Shown here piece after piece: positions 1,333-62,650 of a stretch of 64,000 nucleotides of DNA (within the stretch, counting starts at the first letter, position 1; every line of letters begins with the position of its first letter). The notes under the pieces are model-generated. The model was not told the origin of the DNA. It saw only the letters and a list, made by a program, of their open reading frames with translations, and did no database searches. This DNA is from an uncultured bacterium (lineage in GTDB: Bacteria; Fidelibacterota; Marinisomatia; Marinisomatales; Marinisomataceae): NCBI GenBank assembly GCA_905182795.1, contig CAJJCZ010000004.1:4506-68505 (forward strand), in the 5' to 3' direction. The position numbers were made by a program, and so were the translations under genes.

Positions 1333-2106
1333 TTAACCTTCCTTTTTTTCAGGATTTTGGAATGACCAAAAACCTAGTACAACCACAACAAATAACATCA
1401 TCCAAAACGTTCCGTAGTTATAGTCAGAGGAAGAAAATAGAATTAGATCGTTAAAACGACCAATTAATAGTGAAATACGTCCCATAACTGCAAAACCAAA
1501 CGATGCTCCAAAACTGATCATTAAGAAATAAATTCCTAATCGAGTAAATTTTCCATAAGAACCTGTTTGTTCTTTTGAGAAATAAAAATACATCAATGCA
1601 CTAATTGTACCTATTAAGATAACAATATTATTAAATACGCTATCTCCTGACATACTAAAAAATGGCAAAGAACCGCCAAATATATCTACAGCACTTGCAC
1701 TTATTTGACTCAATACATTAGAGCTCAAATAACCATATGCCTTCAACCCAGCTGCAATCCCTACTGTATAAGCAATACCCCATCTTGCCATCCAACTAAA
1801 CTGCTTAAAAATACTAAGCAACATCATTATACCTAATAATAAAGGGAAGAAATAAAGCACATTAAATTCATGATTAAAATCAACTTCAGCGATAAACGCC
1901 AAAGGGCCATCCTTTGGAAATAGCCTTCCAAATAGATTCGGATAAATTTGTGTCCAATAAAAAGTAGCTGCCCAATAAGCTGCTGAAACACCAACAAAAA
2001 CATGCTCTGCAATCTTATAGAAAGGATTGTCTCTGTATAGATAAGATAAAATACCTAATGTCAAAAATGCTGCAATCCATGCACCGAGAATTGTAGAAAA
2101 TGCCAT
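1333..2106 (-). CDS. polytopic membrane protein (about 7 TM), unknown family; last gene of the MutL-linked module
   Basis: 257 aa with about seven hydrophobic helices by eye (ILGAWIAAFLTLGILSYL ... GTFWMMLFVVVVLGFWSF). Its stop is 3 nt before the lat start and its start is 1 nt after the upstream stop. No family recognised. Confidence 0.6.
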   Translation of the reverse strand: MAFSTILGAWIAAFLTLGILSYLYRDNPFYKIAEHVFVGVSAAYWAATFYWTQIYPNLFGRLFPKDGPLAFIAEVDFNHEFNVLYFFPLLLGIMMLLSIFKQFSWMARWGIAYTVGIAAGLKAYGYLSSNVLSQISASAVDIFGGSLPFFSMSGDSVFNNIVILIGTISALMYFYFSKEQTGSYGKFTRLGIYFLMISFGASFGFAVMGRISLLIGRFNDLILFSSSDYNYGTFWMMLFVVVVLGFWSFQNPEKKEG

Positions 2107-2107
2107 A

Positions 2108-2950
2108 TTAATATTTCCTCTCTCTTCTCTCTGTTATAAAATATGCTAGATTACCTAGAACGATAAATAACACAATTACCAAATGTGCAAATGATTGTGC
2201 AGCCATTCCTTGAATTGCAATCCCTGGCGTACCAATCAATTTTTCATACTCTGCTGCTCCTGGCATTCCAGCGAGAATTCCTCTTACTTGTCCACTCTGA
2301 ACATAAGGCATCACTTCATTTACTTGAATTGATGTTGTTCCAGATGATAGTGGAACACCAGTTGGATCTCCGCCATATTGAACCCATTCAAAAGTACCTG
2401 GATATCCAGCAGAACCAGTAAAAATAAATTGAAAATCTTTTAAATTATTTACACCATCCATCATAGGTATATCTGCAAGCATTGTTCCTTTAGAATCTAC
2501 GGTATAAACCTTACGTAAATCACTAGCAAGTCCTTTGACAATTGCCTCATTTCCCGGTCTAAAACCTAATAATACATAGTCTTCATATTCTACCAACTCA
2601 AATTCTTTGTTAATCTCCTCTAATGCATCAAGGGCCATATATAGGCCATCAGGCCATAAACAAGTAATATATATCTGATGATCTTTACGTAAAAGCTGTC
2701 TCATGACTCCCAATGTCATTGGATGAATCTCAGGTTTAGTACTCGGACCATAATCAAATGACATCAATACTTTTGAATTTGCAGGAATTGCATCAATTGC
2801 ATTATAGACTCTTTCAGTAGTTGGAGTCGTTCTAATCGGTAAATCTATTGGGCGTAAAAGCGGTATAAATACTGCTAAACCAATTAATAGGAAGATAAAT
2901 CTTCTATCGACAGAACCAAATTTTAATATCATATCTTCTAAAAATTTCAT
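2108..2950 (-). CDS. membrane protein with N-terminal TM, ~200-aa soluble domain and C-terminal TM; unknown family
   Basis: 280 aa. TM segments FIFLLIGLAVFIPLL (N-terminal) and FAHLVIVLFIVLGNLAYFI (C-terminal) flank a mixed alpha/beta-looking middle. The start codon shares 1 nt (2950) with the upstream stop. Confidence 0.6.
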   Translation of the reverse strand: MKFLEDMILKFGSVDRRFIFLLIGLAVFIPLLRPIDLPIRTTPTTERVYNAIDAIPANSKVLMSFDYGPSTKPEIHPMTLGVMRQLLRKDHQIYITCLWPDGLYMALDALEEINKEFELVEYEDYVLLGFRPGNEAIVKGLASDLRKVYTVDSKGTMLADIPMMDGVNNLKDFQFIFTGSAGYPGTFEWVQYGGDPTGVPLSSGTTSIQVNEVMPYVQSGQVRGILAGMPGAAEYEKLIGTPGIAIQGMAAQSFAHLVIVLFIVLGNLAYFITERRERKY

Positions 2951-3852
2951 TATTGGTCACCTATATATGATTTTTCTAATCCAAATATATAGCGCAGACT
3001 AGTTACAATAATCCCTAAACCAATACCAATCATAATCGCTCTTGCTCCAGCTAAATTTGGAACTGTATAAATCCATTCTTGTAATGATGGCAAGAAGAAT
3101 ATTGCAGGTTGAGTTGGATTCCAATCCATATTGATACCTAACGCAGTAACACCTAATAAGCCTAAAACAAATGAACCAAAAATAAGTTTACGATCTCTAA
3201 AGTAAGTGCTCATAAAAATTGTCCCAACAAACACCAGTAGATACATTACCATCCAAGGTGTAATTAAGCTACCCACAGGCACTCTACCTAACATAATAAT
3301 AATACCAGCTAATAATAATAATGTAGCTTCAAAATTTCTTGCTCTAAATGCACGATACGAAGCTGAAGCGACATAGAATGCAAGTAATGCAAACATAGTT
3401 GCCGATAAAGGAGTAAAAATACTATCAAACATCCATTTAAATAGGCCGCCTTCCGCAGAAATATGTGCTCCCCATTCAACTGGTATCACAGATTCTGAAG
3501 ATCCAGATACTAAAACAGCTTGCTCAGCTGCCTTTTGGGTAAAGTATACATCTTCACCTACAAAGAAGGCTCCCTTCATGAAGAAACCAATTGTAAAGGC
3601 AAAAAAGAATGATGAGATAGCAACAACACTGTACTGCCATCCTTGCTGTCTTTTTACTACTTTTAAAAATTGTAATTTTAATAGATTTAATGCTCCAAGG
3701 AAAATTGCAAAACTTGCAATAATATCATACCATTGAGTTGCATCGTCATTGATGAACGACTCAACTGACTTGTTATCAATAAACCATCCAAATAAAGTTA
3801 AAGATCCAAAGAATGCAACGATTCCGATTGGGATATATCTTTTTAAAAACAT
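2950..3852 (-). CDS. polytopic membrane protein (about 8 TM), unknown family
   Basis: 300 aa with about eight hydrophobic helices by eye and a charged loop YRAFRARNFE. There is a 1-nt gap to the upstream gene. Confidence 0.6.
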   Translation of the reverse strand: MFLKRYIPIGIVAFFGSLTLFGWFIDNKSVESFINDDATQWYDIIASFAIFLGALNLLKLQFLKVVKRQQGWQYSVVAISSFFFAFTIGFFMKGAFFVGEDVYFTQKAAEQAVLVSGSSESVIPVEWGAHISAEGGLFKWMFDSIFTPLSATMFALLAFYVASASYRAFRARNFEATLLLLAGIIIMLGRVPVGSLITPWMVMYLLVFVGTIFMSTYFRDRKLIFGSFVLGLLGVTALGINMDWNPTQPAIFFLPSLQEWIYTVPNLAGARAIMIGIGLGIIVTSLRYIFGLEKSYIGDQ

Positions 3853-3853
3853 C

Positions 3854-4732
3854 TTATAAACCCAACCATGTTAGAAGATTAAAACTAGTTAATCCTAAGT
3901 CAGATAAAGCGCGTGATAATAAAGCAACTCCAATAAAACTAATCAGCATAAGTTTGACCATATCTTGTGTTTTTACACCAGCAATTAGTTCAGGCTTTCT
4001 TGAAAGATATGCACTTGCTGCAAAATACTCTTCACCCATCAATGTATAGTCACAAGCAGTTACAAAGAAAGGAATTTGCGCTTGAGATGCAGTACCTGCA
4101 ATCTGAATCGCGCCAATACTATTACCAGTTTCTGCAAAAAGTAATGACTCTGCATAAAATTTACCCATATACATACATGCAGCTGGCTTATCTCTTTGCA
4201 TTATTCCATTTACCCCTGCCGCATAAGCAAACTGATCATCTGTAATATAGTGGACCATATCTTCGTTAAACATTTCCGGACGTCCTTGTGTTAAATAAGC
4301 CTCTTTACAAGACTCTCTAGCAGCTTGCATTACAATAGACCTTGCAACAGGAACATCTAAACTTGTTTCGTATTGTGCGGTCATTTGAGCTACATGACCT
4401 AAAATAATTACACCAGCAACAGTTTCAACCTCATTCATATCCATAATACCTGGAACATAAAGAATAGGTCGACCCATTTCAGTAGAACGACCAACAGCTT
4501 CTTCAACTGCTTTTAGTCCTGGAATGGTACGTAAAAAAATTGAATCAGAAGAAATTCGAGCTTGCTTTACTTCGTTTAACATTACCATTATAATGGTAAG
4601 TAAAAGAGCAAACATTACCGCTCTATCTGATTGAAAAATATGAATAGAATCTGGAAGTTGTGTCAAAGCAAAGGTGAATAGGATTATACCTAAGAATCCT
4701 AAAGAATATGTTTGTATTTGATTGTTATTCAT
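3854..4732 (-). CDS. membrane protein with two N-terminal TM, ~190-aa soluble domain and C-terminal TM; unknown family
   Basis: 292 aa. TMs YSLGFLGIILFTFALTQL, AVMFALLLTIIMVML and C-terminal MVKLMLISFIGVALLS flank the domain GRPILYVPGIMDMNEVETVAGVIILGHVA... It overlaps the upstream gene by 8 nt. Confidence 0.6.
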   Translation of the reverse strand: MNNNQIQTYSLGFLGIILFTFALTQLPDSIHIFQSDRAVMFALLLTIIMVMLNEVKQARISSDSIFLRTIPGLKAVEEAVGRSTEMGRPILYVPGIMDMNEVETVAGVIILGHVAQMTAQYETSLDVPVARSIVMQAARESCKEAYLTQGRPEMFNEDMVHYITDDQFAYAAGVNGIMQRDKPAACMYMGKFYAESLLFAETGNSIGAIQIAGTASQAQIPFFVTACDYTLMGEEYFAASAYLSRKPELIAGVKTQDMVKLMLISFIGVALLSRALSDLGLTSFNLLTWLGL

Positions 4733-4997
4733 TTTTGCCTAATCGCTCTAATTCACAAATTAAAAATTCTACACTAGAATGCTGTTCAAATAATTCAGCA
4801 GCCTTATAATAACCATCTGCTTTGACAAATGCACTAATTATTGGCCCAAAAAATACCATCGTCTGGCTTCCAATAAAATTTAGCGGTTTTACCATCTCTA
4901 AAAAAAAGATTGAAGGGGTTATTAATTTTAGCGCTACTATCTTATTAGCAAGCTTTGATAAAAATGCCTTGTCGTCACTAGTTAATATATAACTCAC
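4725..4997 (-). CDS. small (90 aa) hydrophobic/amphipathic protein of the module
   Basis: Overlaps both neighbours (4 nt upstream, 8 nt downstream). Hydrophobic segments LITPSIFFLEMV and TMVFFGPIISAFV. No family recognised. Confidence 0.5.
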   Translation of the reverse strand: MSYILTSDDKAFLSKLANKIVALKLITPSIFFLEMVKPLNFIGSQTMVFFGPIISAFVKADGYYKAAELFEQHSSVEFLICELERLGKNE

Positions 4998-6118
4998 TGC
5001 AATTCAACCATTTCAAGGTTTGCTCTTGGTATAAGAGTATCTACTCCATCTATAGAAATTTCAGCTACTCTTACCATAGTTTCTGACTCCATCTTCTTTA
5101 ATTCTGACGGTAAAGAAGTTACAGTTCCAATTTTTCCAAAATTTGGTGAACGAATTACTCTAACCGTACTACCTTCTTGAATACCTTCTGGCTCTTTAGA
5201 TAAAGAATCTTCTGATTCAGACTCGCTGATCATAGGAATTACAATCTCAGGACGAATTACACCTGCTCTTATTTGTGTTGCACCATTGACTGACGCTTCA
5301 TTTCCATGATTACTTTTTAACAAATCAAATGTAGCATCACTCATTGGAATAGATCCATATCCTTCTGTAATAATTAATGCTGTAGGCAATTGTTCTGTCC
5401 CTGTAATTGCTACGCCTAAATCATATCCTAATACTGCTTTTAAATCATAATAATTAAATCCACCTACCACCACTGCAGCAACATTACAACTCATTGCTTT
5501 TTTATAAGCATCAAGACTTAGAAATGATCCGCCTATTAAAATTTTTCCCGCCATTTCTTTTGTGATTTGATCGGGTGTTAACTCATCGGAAGAACTATTA
5601 GATACCAATACCAACTCTCCTCTTTTTTCACCTGCAATTCCAAAAATACCTTGAATAAATGCTGCATCACACTTTAAGATAATTCCTTCTTTTTCAATTA
5701 CTTCGTCTACCGTACCGCTCACATAGGCATCTACTTCTACTGGTATAGGAACCTCTCTTACTATAACACGTCCTGTGCTTTCAGATATAGACTCAATCGT
5801 TCCATCTACAGGACAATCAACGGAAGATTTAAACATACCAAAGATTCCTGCTGTTTCAGCAATCATATCGCCTTTTTTAATGCTATCGCCTTCTTTGACT
5901 ACTAAACAATCAACTACATCCCTAGGTTCAATATTTAAGATATTATTTACTTTTAACATTTGAATATTACCAGGAAGATTAGTAGAAGCAACGACAGTAT
6001 CAGGAGATAACTTATCGCCTTTCTTTACATGGACTTTACCTTTTAGAGGTAGAATGCGCTCTTTTCTAAAGAGTGTCTTTTTTAATACTTTTAATCCGGG
6101 CGTATAGGAATGTGCCAT
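4994..6118 (-). CDS. soluble 374-aa protein with two barrel-sandwich-hybrid (lipoyl/biotinyl-like) motifs and an SH3/KOW-like C-terminus; unknown family
   Basis: Motifs VHVKKGDKLSPDTVVAST and VVKEGDSIKKGDMIAETAG...VDCPVDGTIESI resemble hybrid-barrel hairpins. The C-terminus is GSTVRVIRSPNFGKIGTVTSL...MVRVAEISIDG. The start directly abuts the stop of the ATPase gene (6118/6119). Confidence 0.55.
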   Translation of the reverse strand: MAHSYTPGLKVLKKTLFRKERILPLKGKVHVKKGDKLSPDTVVASTNLPGNIQMLKVNNILNIEPRDVVDCLVVKEGDSIKKGDMIAETAGIFGMFKSSVDCPVDGTIESISESTGRVIVREVPIPVEVDAYVSGTVDEVIEKEGIILKCDAAFIQGIFGIAGEKRGELVLVSNSSSDELTPDQITKEMAGKILIGGSFLSLDAYKKAMSCNVAAVVVGGFNYYDLKAVLGYDLGVAITGTEQLPTALIITEGYGSIPMSDATFDLLKSNHGNEASVNGATQIRAGVIRPEIVIPMISESESEDSLSKEPEGIQEGSTVRVIRSPNFGKIGTVTSLPSELKKMESETMVRVAEISIDGVDTLIPRANLEMVELQ

Positions 6119-7945
6119 TTAAAATAAATCTCCTTTAGGATATTCATCTACTGCGCTAGACCAATTCAATAAACTATCAATTCTTTTTGATGGATCAGTC
6201 GATAATGTAATTGGTCTATTACGTCCATCAAAAATTAAACCAACTACCCCTCCATATATGATAGAATCAAGCGGTTCTCCTTTTCCGGCACCAACATCTA
6301 CTCCCCTTGATGGCTCTATATGAACCTTTACTTCTTCGTAAGGAACCTCAAGCATTTCAAGTGAACCTTCAATGATTTCAATTGTTTTTGTTGATCCATC
6401 TTTAAATGACATTGTTACATCAGCCATTTTAGATTTGGGCTTTGCTTTTCCAACTGGACTAACACATGTTCCAAGTCTAATTAAACAATCATTATCAAAC
6501 ACCTCTAAGGCAGCTTGACTTGCATCATCTTTTAATTCGTCTTTATCAATATTTGCGAGCACACCTAATTGAGGCATCATAAAAATAGAATCTACCGCTA
6601 ATTGTGTAATACCCTCAGGCATGAAAGCGTCGATAAGCATTCTGGCAGATTGTTGACGACGTGGAGCATGCGATAATACACCACCCGATCCCACCAACAA
6701 ATCTAAATCCATCATATTTACTAAAGATTGACCACTAGAGGACTGCTCAAATGCGTCCGATATAGTACGTTCTGATTGAACTCCTTTAAGACTAGTAGCA
6801 AACGCTTTATGTTGAATAAAAGATAATCTCAATGCCTCTCTAGCAATTGCTTGTTCGATTACTAATTCTTCTAATGATTGCGGCACCGTAGTTGGACGTA
6901 TCATCTTATTACCGATACGATTTGTTAGTTCGCTACGATCAATATCAAAAGGAACCCATCTTAACACATTATCTAATCCTGCTTCAGCTAATACATTACA
7001 AATAGAATAACTCATTCCAAGATTAGCACTTACCGTACGATTAAATTTCTCTTCAAATACAGAAAAAATATCTGTTGTTGCACCGCCGATATCTACTCCT
7101 ACAACAGAAATACCTTCTTTCTTTGCAATCATTTCAATTAAGAAACCTACTGCTCCAGGTGTCGGCATAATAGGAGCGTCAGTCCAAGACATTAGCTTCT
7201 TATATCCAGGTGCCTGCGCCATAACATGTTCCATAAATAAGTCATGAATTTTATCACGTGAAGGCTCCAAATTTTCTCTCTCAAGTACTGGTCTAATATT
7301 ATCAACAATATCTAGATCTGAAATTTCACCGAGCGTTGATTTGATAGACTCTTGTGCCTTATTATTTCCAGCATAAATAATTGGTAGTTTATAATTTTGT
7401 CCTAAACGAGGTCGTGGATTTGCAGCTGCTAAAATTTCAGCTAATTCCATTACATGGGTTGTGGTTCCGCCGTCAGTTCCACCCGATAATAATATCATAT
7501 CAGGTCTTAACTGTCTTATGCGTGTAATTTTTTCATGTGGCAATCTACCATCGTTTGATGCTAAAACATCCATTACAATTGACCCTGCACCTAAAGCAGC
7601 TCTTTCTGCGCTTTCTCCCGACATAGACTTTACCACACCAGCTACCATCATTTGTAATCCACCGCCAGCAGAGCTTGTAGAAATATAGATATCTACTCCT
7701 GACTGCCCATTATCTGGTGTTATAATTTGATCTCCGTCTAAAATAGTTCTTCCAGACAGCTCTTCTACTTCCATCACAGCATTCAATACACCCTTAGTAA
7801 CATCTTCGAAAGGAGCTTCAACGGTTGTAGGGGCTTCACCTCTGAAAGTCAACCTATAGCGATCCTCTTTCCATTCAATTAGAATAGCTTTAGTGGTTGT
7901 ACTTCCACAATCTGTTGCCAATATAGATTTAATTTTTTTACTCAT
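6119..7945 (-). CDS. MutL/GlmL-family (glutamate mutase component L-like) ASKHA ATPase, long 608-aa form
   Basis: ASKHA phosphate/adenosine motifs ATDCGSTTTKAILIE, STSSAGGGLQMMVAG, LLSGGTDGGTTTH, VVGVDIGGATTDIFSV, LLVGSGGVLSHAP. ATGA overlap with cdsA (7942-7945). Confidence 0.75.
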   Translation of the reverse strand: MSKKIKSILATDCGSTTTKAILIEWKEDRYRLTFRGEAPTTVEAPFEDVTKGVLNAVMEVEELSGRTILDGDQIITPDNGQSGVDIYISTSSAGGGLQMMVAGVVKSMSGESAERAALGAGSIVMDVLASNDGRLPHEKITRIRQLRPDMILLSGGTDGGTTTHVMELAEILAAANPRPRLGQNYKLPIIYAGNNKAQESIKSTLGEISDLDIVDNIRPVLERENLEPSRDKIHDLFMEHVMAQAPGYKKLMSWTDAPIMPTPGAVGFLIEMIAKKEGISVVGVDIGGATTDIFSVFEEKFNRTVSANLGMSYSICNVLAEAGLDNVLRWVPFDIDRSELTNRIGNKMIRPTTVPQSLEELVIEQAIAREALRLSFIQHKAFATSLKGVQSERTISDAFEQSSSGQSLVNMMDLDLLVGSGGVLSHAPRRQQSARMLIDAFMPEGITQLAVDSIFMMPQLGVLANIDKDELKDDASQAALEVFDNDCLIRLGTCVSPVGKAKPKSKMADVTMSFKDGSTKTIEIIEGSLEMLEVPYEEVKVHIEPSRGVDVGAGKGEPLDSIIYGGVVGLIFDGRNRPITLSTDPSKRIDSLLNWSSAVDEYPKGDLF

Positions 7946-21023: not shown

Positions 21024-21110
21024 CGGAGAGAGAGGGATTCGAACCCTCGATACAGTTTCCCGTATAACACCTTAGCAGGGTGCCGCTTTCAACCACTCAG
21101 CCACCTCTCC
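21024..21110 (-). tRNA. tRNA-Ser (anticodon GCU)
   Basis: Minus strand GGAGAGGTGGCTGAGTGG...CCCTGCTAAGGTG...long variable arm ATACGGGAAACTGTAT...GAGGGTTCGAATCCCTCTCTCTCCG. The cloverleaf folds by hand; CCA is not encoded. Confidence 0.9.
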
Positions 21111-55606: not shown

Positions 55607-56095
55607 ATGAGTAGTATTTATAAACGAAAAAGAAATGGGAAAAATGATGGATATGTAATGTATTCGATTTATGCCTACGATCCTTTAAAAAATAAAAAAA
55701 GGTATTTTAATATAACTTTAGGAAAAATTGGTCCTACCCTAACCTGGGATGACTGCTTGAAACAAAAAAAAGAACTTGATCGTGTTTTTGCTATTAAAAA
55801 AGGCGGTAAACGAGAAATGCAGCTAAGTAGCGCTATTAAAACCTATCTAAAGCACAAAATGATACATTTTATAACAAAACCTCCTAAAGCAAGCTCTATG
55901 AAGCTTCAAAACTACCACCTGTATAAGTTTGAAGAGGTTATTGTTCAAAGATATGGATCTGGTATCATGATGAAGCATATCGATAGTAACATATTAGATT
56001 GGTATTTCGATATAAGAGAACAAGAACTCAAGGCTAGTTCAATGATTGTTCATAAGAGAATAATAGATAGTTTTCTAAATTGGATTAAGAATTGA
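55607..56095 (+). pseudogene. truncated tyrosine-recombinase/integrase (arm-binding plus SAM-like N-terminal domains only)
   Basis: IYKRKRNGKNDGYVMYSIYAYDPLKNKKRYF is arm-type, then AIKTYLKHK...YHLYKFEEVIV...ILDWYFDI...HKRIIDSFLNWI is SAM-like. There is no catalytic R..HxxR..Y domain. The TGA stop overlaps the 3' end of tRNA-Gly. Confidence 0.6.
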
Positions 56096-56167
56096 GCGAG
56101 TGACGCGATTCGAACGCGCGACCCCAACCTTGGCAAGGTTGTGCTCTACCAGCTGAGCTACACTCGC
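56095..56167 (-). tRNA. tRNA-Gly (anticodon GCC)
   Basis: Minus strand GCGAGTGTAGCTCAGCTGGTAGAGCACAACCTTGCCAAGGTTGGGGTCGCGCGTTCGAATCGCGTCACTCGCT. The cloverleaf folds by hand; CCA is not encoded. Confidence 0.9.
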
Positions 56168-62577: not shown

Positions 62578-62650
62578 TGGAGCTGACAGGGATTGAACCT
62601 GCGACCTCATGAATGCCATCCACGCGCTCTACCAACTGAGCTACAGCCCC
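62578..62650 (-). tRNA. tRNA-Ala (anticodon GGC)
   Basis: Minus strand GGGGCTGTAGCTCAGTTGGTAGAGCGCGTGGATGGCATTCATGAGGTCGCAGGTTCAATCCCTGTCAGCTCCA. G3:U70 identity pair is present; CCA is not encoded. Confidence 0.9.

Follow-up and report, generated by a model that had tools for sequence, protein, structure and literature searches.

Seven minus-strand genes, here designated A to G, lie near the start of a 64,000-nucleotide stretch of contig CAJJCZ010000004.1 (assembly GCA_905182795.1, positions 4,506 to 68,505; the whole stretch is referred to below as the window) from an uncultured bacterium of the Marinisomataceae. We see an even chance that these genes represent, in Marinimicrobia (SAR406), a widespread and undescribed cell-envelope system, driven by ATP and built of two units: a cytoplasmic unit made of the ASKHA ATPase A, its partner B and the small protein C, and an inner-membrane cassette of four proteins, D-E-F-G. 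The same genes recur in conserved order under about 12 phylum-level labels. Profile searches of the seven proteins against Pfam and NCBIfam, a check that the first-pass annotation of this DNA had called for, and against PADLOC returned only MutL for A and DUF6754 for D, and none of the seven matched a PADLOC-DB defence model at E 0.01 or better. Searches with PDB profiles (A, B, E, F and G) and with Foldseek (D and B) gave no characterised relative, so that the earlier impression of a gene set matching no described system stands, and the partners of A do not turn out to be a known transporter or respiratory complex. Apart from the ATPase superfamily, no component can be tied to a characterised relative. 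Public metagenome-assembled genomes (MAGs) of Candidatus Marinimicrobia (Neomarinimicrobiota/Fidelibacterota), and dozens of marine contigs from Tara Oceans and elsewhere, contain exact copies of all seven proteins, which are named hypothetical or uncharacterized there.

The gene set is conserved across phyla

DUF6754, the family of D, comprises 2002 representatives when clustered at 50% identity; 698 of them match with E 1e-30 or better. A one-genome-per-species scan for DUF6754 yielded at least 590 confirmed matches, and the best 80 loci were taken for synteny, using iterated hidden Markov models (HMMs) built from the window proteins and run on all open reading frames (ORFs) of the loci. A second scan, centred on B, was carried out on metagenome contigs. 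According to the record titles, the best 80 loci fall under about 12 phylum-level labels. These include Marinimicrobia, Zixibacteria, Ignavibacteria, WOR-3, Fermentibacteria/Aegiribacteria, Eisenbacteria, Riflebacteria, Muiribacteria and Stahlbacteria, the Planctomycetota labels Planctomycetaceae, Phycisphaerales and Isosphaeraceae, and single MAGs labelled Deltaproteobacteria, Bacillota and Lentisphaeria. Several hundred species or more of poorly studied phyla carry the system. We take phyla such as Marinimicrobia, Zixibacteria, Ignavibacteria, WOR-3 and Planctomycetota to be diderm and to lack model organisms. The locus labelled uncultured Lentisphaeria (L006, CAYVVT010000005.1) encodes a D protein 69% identical to that of the window and has the Marinimicrobia-type order A-B-C-DEFG, with cdsA about 4 kb upstream of A; its label is probably wrong.

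The cassette D-E-F-G was complete and in fixed order in 69 of the 79 D-centred genome loci, and A lay inside the locus in 29 of the 52 D-centred loci whose sequence reaches 5 kb or more upstream of D. Where the A-B pair stands relative to the cassette varies. Marinimicrobia have cdsA-A-B-C-DEFG; Planctomycetota, Fermentibacteria, Zixibacteria and Ignavibacteria have (c11-)C-A-B-DEFG, where c11 is a further small membrane protein; Riflebacteria and Muiribacteria have DEFG-C-A-B; and in some Zixibacteria and Ignavibacteria A-B is divergent from the cassette. The order c11-C-A-B-D-E-F-G was common in the B-centred metagenome scan and was also seen on two independent gene-called Planctomycete contigs, on which only MutL and DUF6754 carry a Pfam label. 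A varied relative arrangement of genes that stay together is a classical signature of functional linkage, and the arrangements found here point to such linkage between A-B and D-E-F-G.

The first-pass annotation had described a single translationally coupled module, recognised by its tight packing. The coordinates of the seven ORFs hold as claimed, and the junctions follow from them: a 4-nt overlap of cdsA with A, direct abutment at 6118/6119, overlaps of 4 nt and 8 nt, a 1-nt gap, one shared base and a 1-nt gap. Real as they are, the junctions do not mark out a module or prove one, because packing is equally tight elsewhere. The window is 97% coding, with 68 ORF-level genes nearly all on the minus strand; same-strand gaps have a median of 2 nt, and junctions of 5 nt or less make up 65% of those between same-strand genes, so that a run of seven such junctions has a chance probability of about 0.05 (0.65^7). 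The packing extends beyond both ends of the gene set, with cdsA overlapping A and an aminotransferase gene beginning 3 nt past the stop codon of G. We therefore rejected packing as evidence for a module. By packing alone the seven genes could be chance neighbours in a compact genome, since cdsA and the aminotransferase gene are joined to them just as tightly. This is refuted by synteny: the same genes are found in conserved order under the ~12 phylum labels with ordinary intergenic spacing, and chance keeps next to no probability. The more-than-chance status of the genes rests on the conservation of the set across phyla and not on the junctions.

As to a single seven-gene module, the genes do co-occur as a set, but they form two separable units, A-B(-C) and D-E-F-G. 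In WOR-3 and Eisenbacteria the units do not adjoin, and A-B sometimes sits at another place in the genome. A and B were adjacent in 39 of 51 informative B-centred loci. In four loci (L103, L106, L149 and L156) the two are duplicated as a pair, in the arrangement c11-A-B-C-A-B, giving two paralogous pairs per locus, and in one MAG (L070) they are fused, residues 120-604 of A being joined through a 23-aa linker to residues 2-372 of B. The set of six partners named for A in the first-pass annotation is likewise incomplete for other phyla, which have c11 as an eighth member and in which the cassette may be triplicated.

A is a MutL-family ATPase outside the GlmL type

A matches the Pfam MutL family (PF13941) over model positions 1-441 of 450 with 414.4 bits (E 7.2e-124; cut-off 27 bits), and all five ASKHA motifs quoted in the first-pass annotation were found in the protein. 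The family assignment is thereby borne out, whereas the label "MutL/GlmL-type" proved too specific: A falls below the NCBIfam cut-offs for the GlmL equivalog NF040745 (218.2 versus 475 bits), Or-4 NF040744 (207.8 versus 600 bits) and the TIGR01319 subfamily (155.4 versus 204.05 bits). With GlmL/MutL, the accessory protein of B12-dependent glutamate mutase, and with Or-4 of ornithine degradation, A shares the whole core of about 450 residues and the ASKHA motifs. It differs from them in these scores, in an extra C-terminal domain of about 138 aa that lies outside the NCBIfam GlmL-type models (448-459 positions), and in its partners, which are B and membrane proteins. ORF clustering of more than 160 homologous loci revealed no mutase or B12-binding gene as a recurrent neighbour of the A subfamily within these loci, in keeping with what had been noticed in the window. 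NCBI names for homologs of A include 'glutamate mutase L', 'methylaspartate mutase' and 'GlmL-related ornithine degradation protein', and public databases also use the label 'uncharacterized protein (TIGR01319 family)'; the glutamate-mutase-type names are likely misannotations.

Between Marinimicrobia and other phyla A is 59-78% identical, with several hundred invariant columns. The ASKHA phosphate and adenosine motifs are all invariant in the homolog alignment, which suggests that A is competent as an ATPase. No PDB relative of A was found by sequence or by family profile. A local match to Hydantoinase_A covers 39 residues and scores 23.8 bits against a cut-off of 22.9; no full-length Hydantoinase_A match and no HyuB-like neighbour were found in the window or in homologous loci, and we do not count A among the hydantoinases and oxoprolinases.

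The C-terminal extension contains a Cys-x6-Cys motif (DCLIxLGTC) in which C487 is invariant and C494 is kept in 31 of 32 sequences, making it a candidate metal or redox site. A profile search at this position gave a chance-level match to a segment of the fumarate reductase iron-sulphur (Fe-S) subunit (E 0.89). A bridging Fe-S cluster was considered and found unsupported, with the second cysteine missing in one sequence and nothing else pointing there.

B is a highly conserved multidomain partner

The AlphaFold2 (AF2) model of B (predicted local distance difference test, pLDDT, 81.9) has a beta-rich N-terminal half with a barrel-sandwich hybrid, an alpha/beta middle domain and a KOW/SH3-like C-terminus. 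Profile matches in Pfam and NCBIfam stayed below threshold (RnfC_N, NqrA_N, biotin-lipoyl and KOW), and no PDB relative was found by sequence or family profile. Foldseek against the PDB gave per-domain matches only, at TM-scores of 0.24 or less, to Thermotoga maritima NusG domain II plus KOW, BesA, the biotinyl domain of pyruvate carboxylase, and RraA. The middle domain is weakly RraA-like (profile independent E-value 0.41; Foldseek probability 0.97, E 0.05). The Joint Genome Institute (JGI) calls several homologs of B 'transcription antitermination factor NusG' (P0289-P0292, P0298, P0308, P0310 and P0315), a label that evidently arises from the C-terminal KOW-like domain and is likely a misannotation. 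A role for B as biotin carrier was rejected, as the lysine at the hairpin position is not conserved in the homolog alignment.

B is 45-66% identical across phyla, with a mean column identity of 60%. Its most conserved motifs are the invariant N-terminal YTPGL, LGVAITGxE and NGATQIRAGVIRPE. The segments with pLDDT below 50 (residues 1-8, 236-239 and 283-286) coincide with these three top-conserved motifs. The model thus suggests that the conserved loops become ordered only on a partner or ligand, as expected for partner-binding loops.

The sub-threshold matches raise the question of whether B is the RnfC/NqrA-like peripheral subunit of a highly diverged Rnf/Nqr relative. B scores 22.5 bits for RnfC_N (cut-off 25.6), 17 bits for NqrA_N (cut-off 25) and 15.7 bits for TIGR01945 rnfC (cut-off 245.95), matches PrdC weakly as well, and has a homolog, P0350, that just reaches the RnfC_N cut-off (25.7 versus 25.6). 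However, these matches span only the barrel-sandwich hairpin of about 45 residues, the B of the window is below the cut-offs, and a full-length structural match is lacking, with NqrA and RnfC absent from the top 50 Foldseek PDB matches. The membrane proteins do not fit either: C, D, E, F and G match no RnfD/NqrB, RnfA/E/NqrD/E or RnfG/NqrC family in Pfam or NCBIfam, and E, F and G have no PDB profile match. Fe-S or flavin-binding domains were not detected, and an ATPase stands in place of an NADH or ferredoxin module. We regard kinship with Rnf/Nqr as largely refuted and very improbable.

The membrane cassette D-E-F-G and its paralogs

D matches PF20539 (DUF6754), a family to which no function has been assigned, over residues 31-272 with 360.5 bits (E 5e-108; gathering cut-off 27 bits); its other profile matches are weak and of the IF-2B type only. 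It consists of an N-terminal signal-anchor helix, a transmembrane (TM) helix, a Rossmann-like domain and a C-terminal TM helix, and in the AF2 model (pLDDT 91.8) a compact alpha/beta domain lies between one or two N-terminal helices and a long C-terminal TM helix. Foldseek of D against the PDB gave nothing below E 0.01 and only generic SIS, molybdenum-cofactor-carrier and Rossmann folds. Of its 33 invariant columns many are polar, among them R82, T84, E85, E195, E201, Q210, T214, Q219, C227, D228, E234, E235, D257 and K260. N-terminal to the DUF6754 region, 6 of 78 D homologs carry FN3 domains and 15 of 78 carry PQQ/BamB-type beta-propellers; no enzyme domains were found on the 78.

E, F and G belong to no Pfam or NCBIfam family and have no PDB match by family profile. 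Hydropathy agrees with the earlier description of E and G as polytopic proteins and of D and F as soluble domains between TM helices. E has a six-TM core, which in most phyla is about 215 aa long and to which Marinimicrobia E adds insertions in both predicted periplasmic loops; in the alignment a motif in TM4 is conserved (ATMFALLAF.VASASYRAFRA), and insertions of variable kind occur at two sites. Two E homologs (L073 and L045) contain FG-GAP repeats at residues 279-355 of 592, which would sit in predicted periplasmic loop 1. The FN3 and propeller domains N-terminal on D and the FG-GAP repeats on E place the N-terminal part of D and loops 1 and 2 of E outside the cell, with the Rossmann-like domain of D predicted to be inside. 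F has an N-terminal TM helix, a domain of about 220 aa and a C-terminal TM helix with invariant Q252, H256 and N267. Basic residues precede its first TM helix and come after the last, and the domain is therefore predicted to be periplasmic. G, with conserved D26, N27, K31, E34, R108, R210 and R217, is the last gene of the cassette in every case. All-against-all hhalign comparison found the seven families mutually unrelated, D not being related to F nor E to G, and 150 representatives included no protein in which D is fused to E, F, G, A or B.

Fifteen loci have two or three tandem copies of D-E-F-G, with up to three beside a single A-B. By position the cassettes are orthologous across loci (55-90% identity), but within a locus they are only 30-50% identical; they are therefore ancient, specialised paralogs. 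When paralogous cassettes are compared, D is the best conserved protein, at a median identity of 50%, and F, the periplasmic one, comes lowest at 37%. Such a gradient would be expected if D docks a shared A-B and F carries specificity.

The small membrane proteins C and c11

C had been called hydrophobic in the first-pass annotation. It is only moderately so, no 19-residue window reaching a Kyte-Doolittle value of 1.6, and in the alignment it consists of a hydrophobic hairpin, conserved Pro/Glu residues and a helical tail; in other phyla it is 110-200 aa long. C has no Pfam or NCBIfam match. An iterated HMM recovered the family in 37 genome and 34 metagenome loci, always beside A-B or D. The protein c11, which occurs outside Marinimicrobia and has no homolog in the window, consists of two TM helices and a soluble domain of about 80 aa. 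C and c11 accompany A-B in most lineages and adjoin D in the absence of A-B in two loci (L025 and L026), and are therefore plausible adaptors. Beyond c11 no further recurrent conserved neighbours were found; ExbB-ExbD-TonB and DUF4388 (in WOR-3 and Fermentibacteria), gcvP, Wzz and others are lineage-specific.

A proposed ATP-driven envelope machine

The analysis shows the gene content, the folds of D and B, features of topology, conservation, synteny, the paralogy of the cassettes and the lack of known relatives; for the physical assembly of the system, its coupling to ATP, its direction of action and its substrate we propose the following scheme. Unit 1 would be a cytoplasmic motor or adaptor made of A, its partner B and C, joined in other phyla by c11. 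Unit 2 would be the inner-membrane cassette D-E-F-G, with the Rossmann-like domain of D facing the cytoplasm and the domain of F on the periplasmic side, supplemented in other phyla by ectodomains that D and E bear (FN3, beta-propeller or FG-GAP). A-B would bind and hydrolyse ATP and dock on the cytoplasmic domain of D, tethered by C and c11. Docking would alter the conformation of D, E, F and G across their roughly 16-20 TM helices, and this change would do work on an extracytoplasmic substrate by transport or mechanotransmission; the paralogous cassettes would be interchangeable specificity modules for one A-B. The scheme keeps the first-pass idea of one ATP-dependent membrane complex, in the conditional. 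That an ASKHA ATPase, and not an ABC, AAA+, P-type or rotary ATPase, powers a modular D-E-F-G, with paralogous cassettes giving periplasmic specificities and with lipid or envelope movement or remodelling as a possible task, is a tentative and somewhat doubtful extension, under which the system would form a class of envelope machine of its own.

The nearest mechanistic precedent for A may be the reactivase-type ASKHA ATPases that act on Rossmann-like subunits, an analogy and not a membership. In DdrAB/GdrAB and EutA an ASKHA ATPase with a swivelling beta/beta/alpha domain carries out an ATP-dependent exchange on a Rossmann/flavodoxin-like subunit. The likeness would lie in the pairing of an ASKHA protein, A, with B and its weakly RraA-like middle domain, and in the linkage of both to the Rossmann-like domain of D; it serves as a lead. 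Unlike the reactivases, A has no detected sequence relation to DdrA/EutA, the domain of D is membrane-anchored, and no radical enzymes are nearby. Functional analogies of other kinds can be drawn to the type VII ABC systems (MacB, LolCDE, FtsEX), which share the scheme of a cytoplasmic ATPase and periplasmic domains flanked by TM helices, and to the ECF transporters, in which one energiser serves several paralogous membrane modules, as A-B apparently does here. The ATPase fold of the present system is ASKHA, D, E, F and G match no ABC, ECF or MacB family, and in Pfam and NCBIfam no ABC_tran or permease family was matched by any of the seven proteins.

PilM-PilN-PilO, like FtsA and MreB-RodZ, combines an ASKHA cytoplasmic protein with bitopic membrane proteins and a short conserved peptide, to which YTPGL of B may be compared. 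A belongs to the MutL/hydantoinase branch and not to the actin/PilM branch, and no pilus, secretin or pilin genes are linked in the homologous loci. This comparison bears on the alternative that A polymerises in an actin-like manner and is anchored by C, c11 and D as a cytoskeletal scaffold, the ectodomains then being adhesins or envelope organisers in cell shape, division or surface motility. The ASKHA fold of A fits this, as does a degree of conservation close to that common among cytoskeletal proteins; D and E bear ectodomains of the protein-binding or adhesion kind and no enzyme domains; and the invariant, disordered N-terminal peptide of B may recall the PilN peptide in the cleft of PilM. 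Against these stand the facts that the MutL/hydantoinase clade is not known to polymerise and that planktonic, streamlined Marinimicrobia retain the system with almost no ectodomain. We give the scaffold a slim chance.

The sole lead to the substrate of the proposed machine is membrane-lipid or envelope biogenesis, a weak lead to which we allow a small chance at most. It comes from phospholipid and fatty-acid genes that turn up repeatedly right beside the system in independent lineages. cdsA and a diacylglycerol (DAG)-kinase-like gene abut A in 15-17 Marinimicrobia-type loci, the linkage with cdsA being seen in these only; plsX-fabH-fabD-x-fabG directly follows G in two Planctomycetota classes (Phycisphaerales and Isosphaeraceae); accA is near a lone B in 11 loci; and a PlsC-like gene is present in one locus (L088). 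The cultured Schlesneria paludicola (L161, JH636435.1, 5906-15778) carries C-A, directly upstream of which is a gene for a 1196-aa fusion of MFS_1, acyltransferase and AMP-binding domains (LplT/Aas-type, lysophospholipid recycling-like); downstream, C-A is followed by the gene of an unrelated membrane protein of 1199 aa that belongs to no Pfam family and lacks homologs in the other loci fetched.

Several points weigh against an ATP-driven machine of this kind and against its lipid substrate. Contact between A-B and D-E-F-G is suggested only indirectly, by synteny in varied arrangements, by one A-B fusion and by the conservation pattern of D, and the fusion, known from a single MAG, could be a stop-codon error. 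The generic Rossmann-like fold modelled for D could equally be that of an enzyme or a ligand sensor. The only MutL-family members that have been studied are thought to be soluble accessory proteins, and we know of no ASKHA ATPase that energises a transporter. In Schlesneria no B or D-E-F-G lies within 10 kb of C-A. Most lineages examined have no lipid neighbours and instead gcvP, a TonB-dependent receptor, acyl-CoA dehydrogenases, a PP-loop ATPase or peroxiredoxin, and the lipid association is close to what housekeeping clustering might give. The two units are apart in about half of the informative loci (D is present in only 11 of the 23 B-centred loci that extend 6 kb or more to either side), and in at least eight loci B is alone among housekeeping genes (dnaK-grpE, prfA-prmC, accA-era).

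The separation of the units and the ability of B to stand alone speak also for a linkage by pathway only, in which A-B would be a soluble ATP-dependent enzyme or chaperone (hydantoinase/oxoprolinase- or reactivase-like) and D-E-F-G a separate transporter or membrane enzyme sharing a metabolite with it. The place of A in the MutL branch of the hydantoinase A superfamily, its short Hydantoinase_A match, and a class-III aminotransferase gene that recurs after G in 12 Marinimicrobia loci fit such a pathway. Yet the aminotransferase is confined to Marinimicrobia, and A-B has no recurring enzyme neighbour, be it hydantoinase B, a mutase or another. The membrane-associated C and c11 travel with A-B, no part of the cassettes sharing one A-B is better conserved than the cytoplasmic domain of D, and the cross-phylum identity of A is unusual for a peripheral metabolic enzyme. 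We consider a mere pathway linkage rather unlikely.

Neighbouring genes and features of the window

Coordinates of the seven genes, of their domains and of other features of the window are given in Table 1. The window neighbours of the gene set are cdsA, the DAG-kinase-like gene, an RlpA-like gene and the class-III aminotransferase gene, homologs of which were found downstream of the genes in the 12 Marinimicrobia loci and in no other phylum. Three transfer RNA genes were located in the window, and no riboswitches or other RNA elements were found in it or in seven loci.

Table 1. Positions of genes, domains and other features in the window
Feature	Position (nt)	Strand	Description
A	6119-7945	minus	608 aa, cytoplasmic ASKHA ATPase, Pfam MutL family
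A, MutL core	6536-7924	minus	residues 8-470, PF13941
A, C-terminal extension	6122-6535	minus	about 138 aa, outside NCBIfam GlmL-type models
A, Cys-x6-Cys motif	6461-6484	minus	residues 487-494
B	4994-6118	minus	374 aa, cytoplasmic, barrel-sandwich-hybrid + alpha/beta + KOW/SH3-like
C	4725-4997	minus	90 aa, GTG start, small membrane-associated protein
D	3854-4732	minus	292 aa, DUF6754 protein
D, Rossmann-like cytoplasmic domain	3998-4525	minus	about residues 70-245, from AF2 model
E	2950-3852	minus	300 aa, polytopic membrane protein
F	2108-2950	minus	280 aa, TM-predicted periplasmic domain-TM
G	1333-2106	minus	257 aa, polytopic membrane protein
Class-III aminotransferase gene	1-1329	minus	lysine-6-transaminase-like by eye; runs off window start
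tRNA gene	21024-21110	minus	
tRNA gene	56095-56167	minus	
tRNA gene	62578-62650	minus	

In one lineage (L086, L090, L097, L099, L101, L118 and others) a lone B is followed by a conserved ORF of about 290-310 aa, then by accA and era. The product of this ORF looks like an outer-membrane beta-barrel, with a signal peptide, a G-x-R-E-x-G-M-x-G-x-G N-terminal motif and an aromatic C-terminus. In L097 (9998-13878) dnaK-grpE lies upstream of the lone B. In WOR-3 a gene for a DUF4388 protein and four small unknown ORFs come directly after G, and then ExbB-ExbD-ExbD-TonB; in Fermentibacteria ExbB/ExbD/TonB genes are also downstream, after a TonB-dependent receptor gene (loci L042, 12859-17980, and L059, 16153-18894). 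A WOR-3 record, the MAG 'chromosome' CP070705.1 (L042), contains an isolated fragment at 3647-4015 on the minus strand that matches only positions 39-400 of bacterial 16S rRNA and is probably an assembly or binning artefact.

Implications

A search of the available literature for DUF6754, PF13941, PF20539, TIGR01319, 'glutamate mutase L' and MutL together with ASKHA and membrane found nothing relevant, and in the part covered of the essential-gene tables of Planctopirus limnophila the mismatch-repair MutL is the only MutL. We know of no system in which an ASKHA ATPase of the MutL/hydantoinase branch is coupled to a membrane complex. The unity of the present system as one machine and its function are what we infer.

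Conservation as high as that of A and B is as a rule confined to core machinery, yet every member of the system is annotated as hypothetical or in a misleading way. Even should the proposed mechanism be wrong, the misannotation alone affects metabolic reconstructions, in which B12-dependent glutamate fermentation would be deduced. The presence of A and C in the cultured Schlesneria paludicola offers a starting point for experiments. If A-B does power D-E-F-G, a new way of energising membrane machines would come into view, DUF6754 and four further unnamed families would gain a function, and a step of envelope biogenesis unlike the Proteobacterial paradigm could be exposed.

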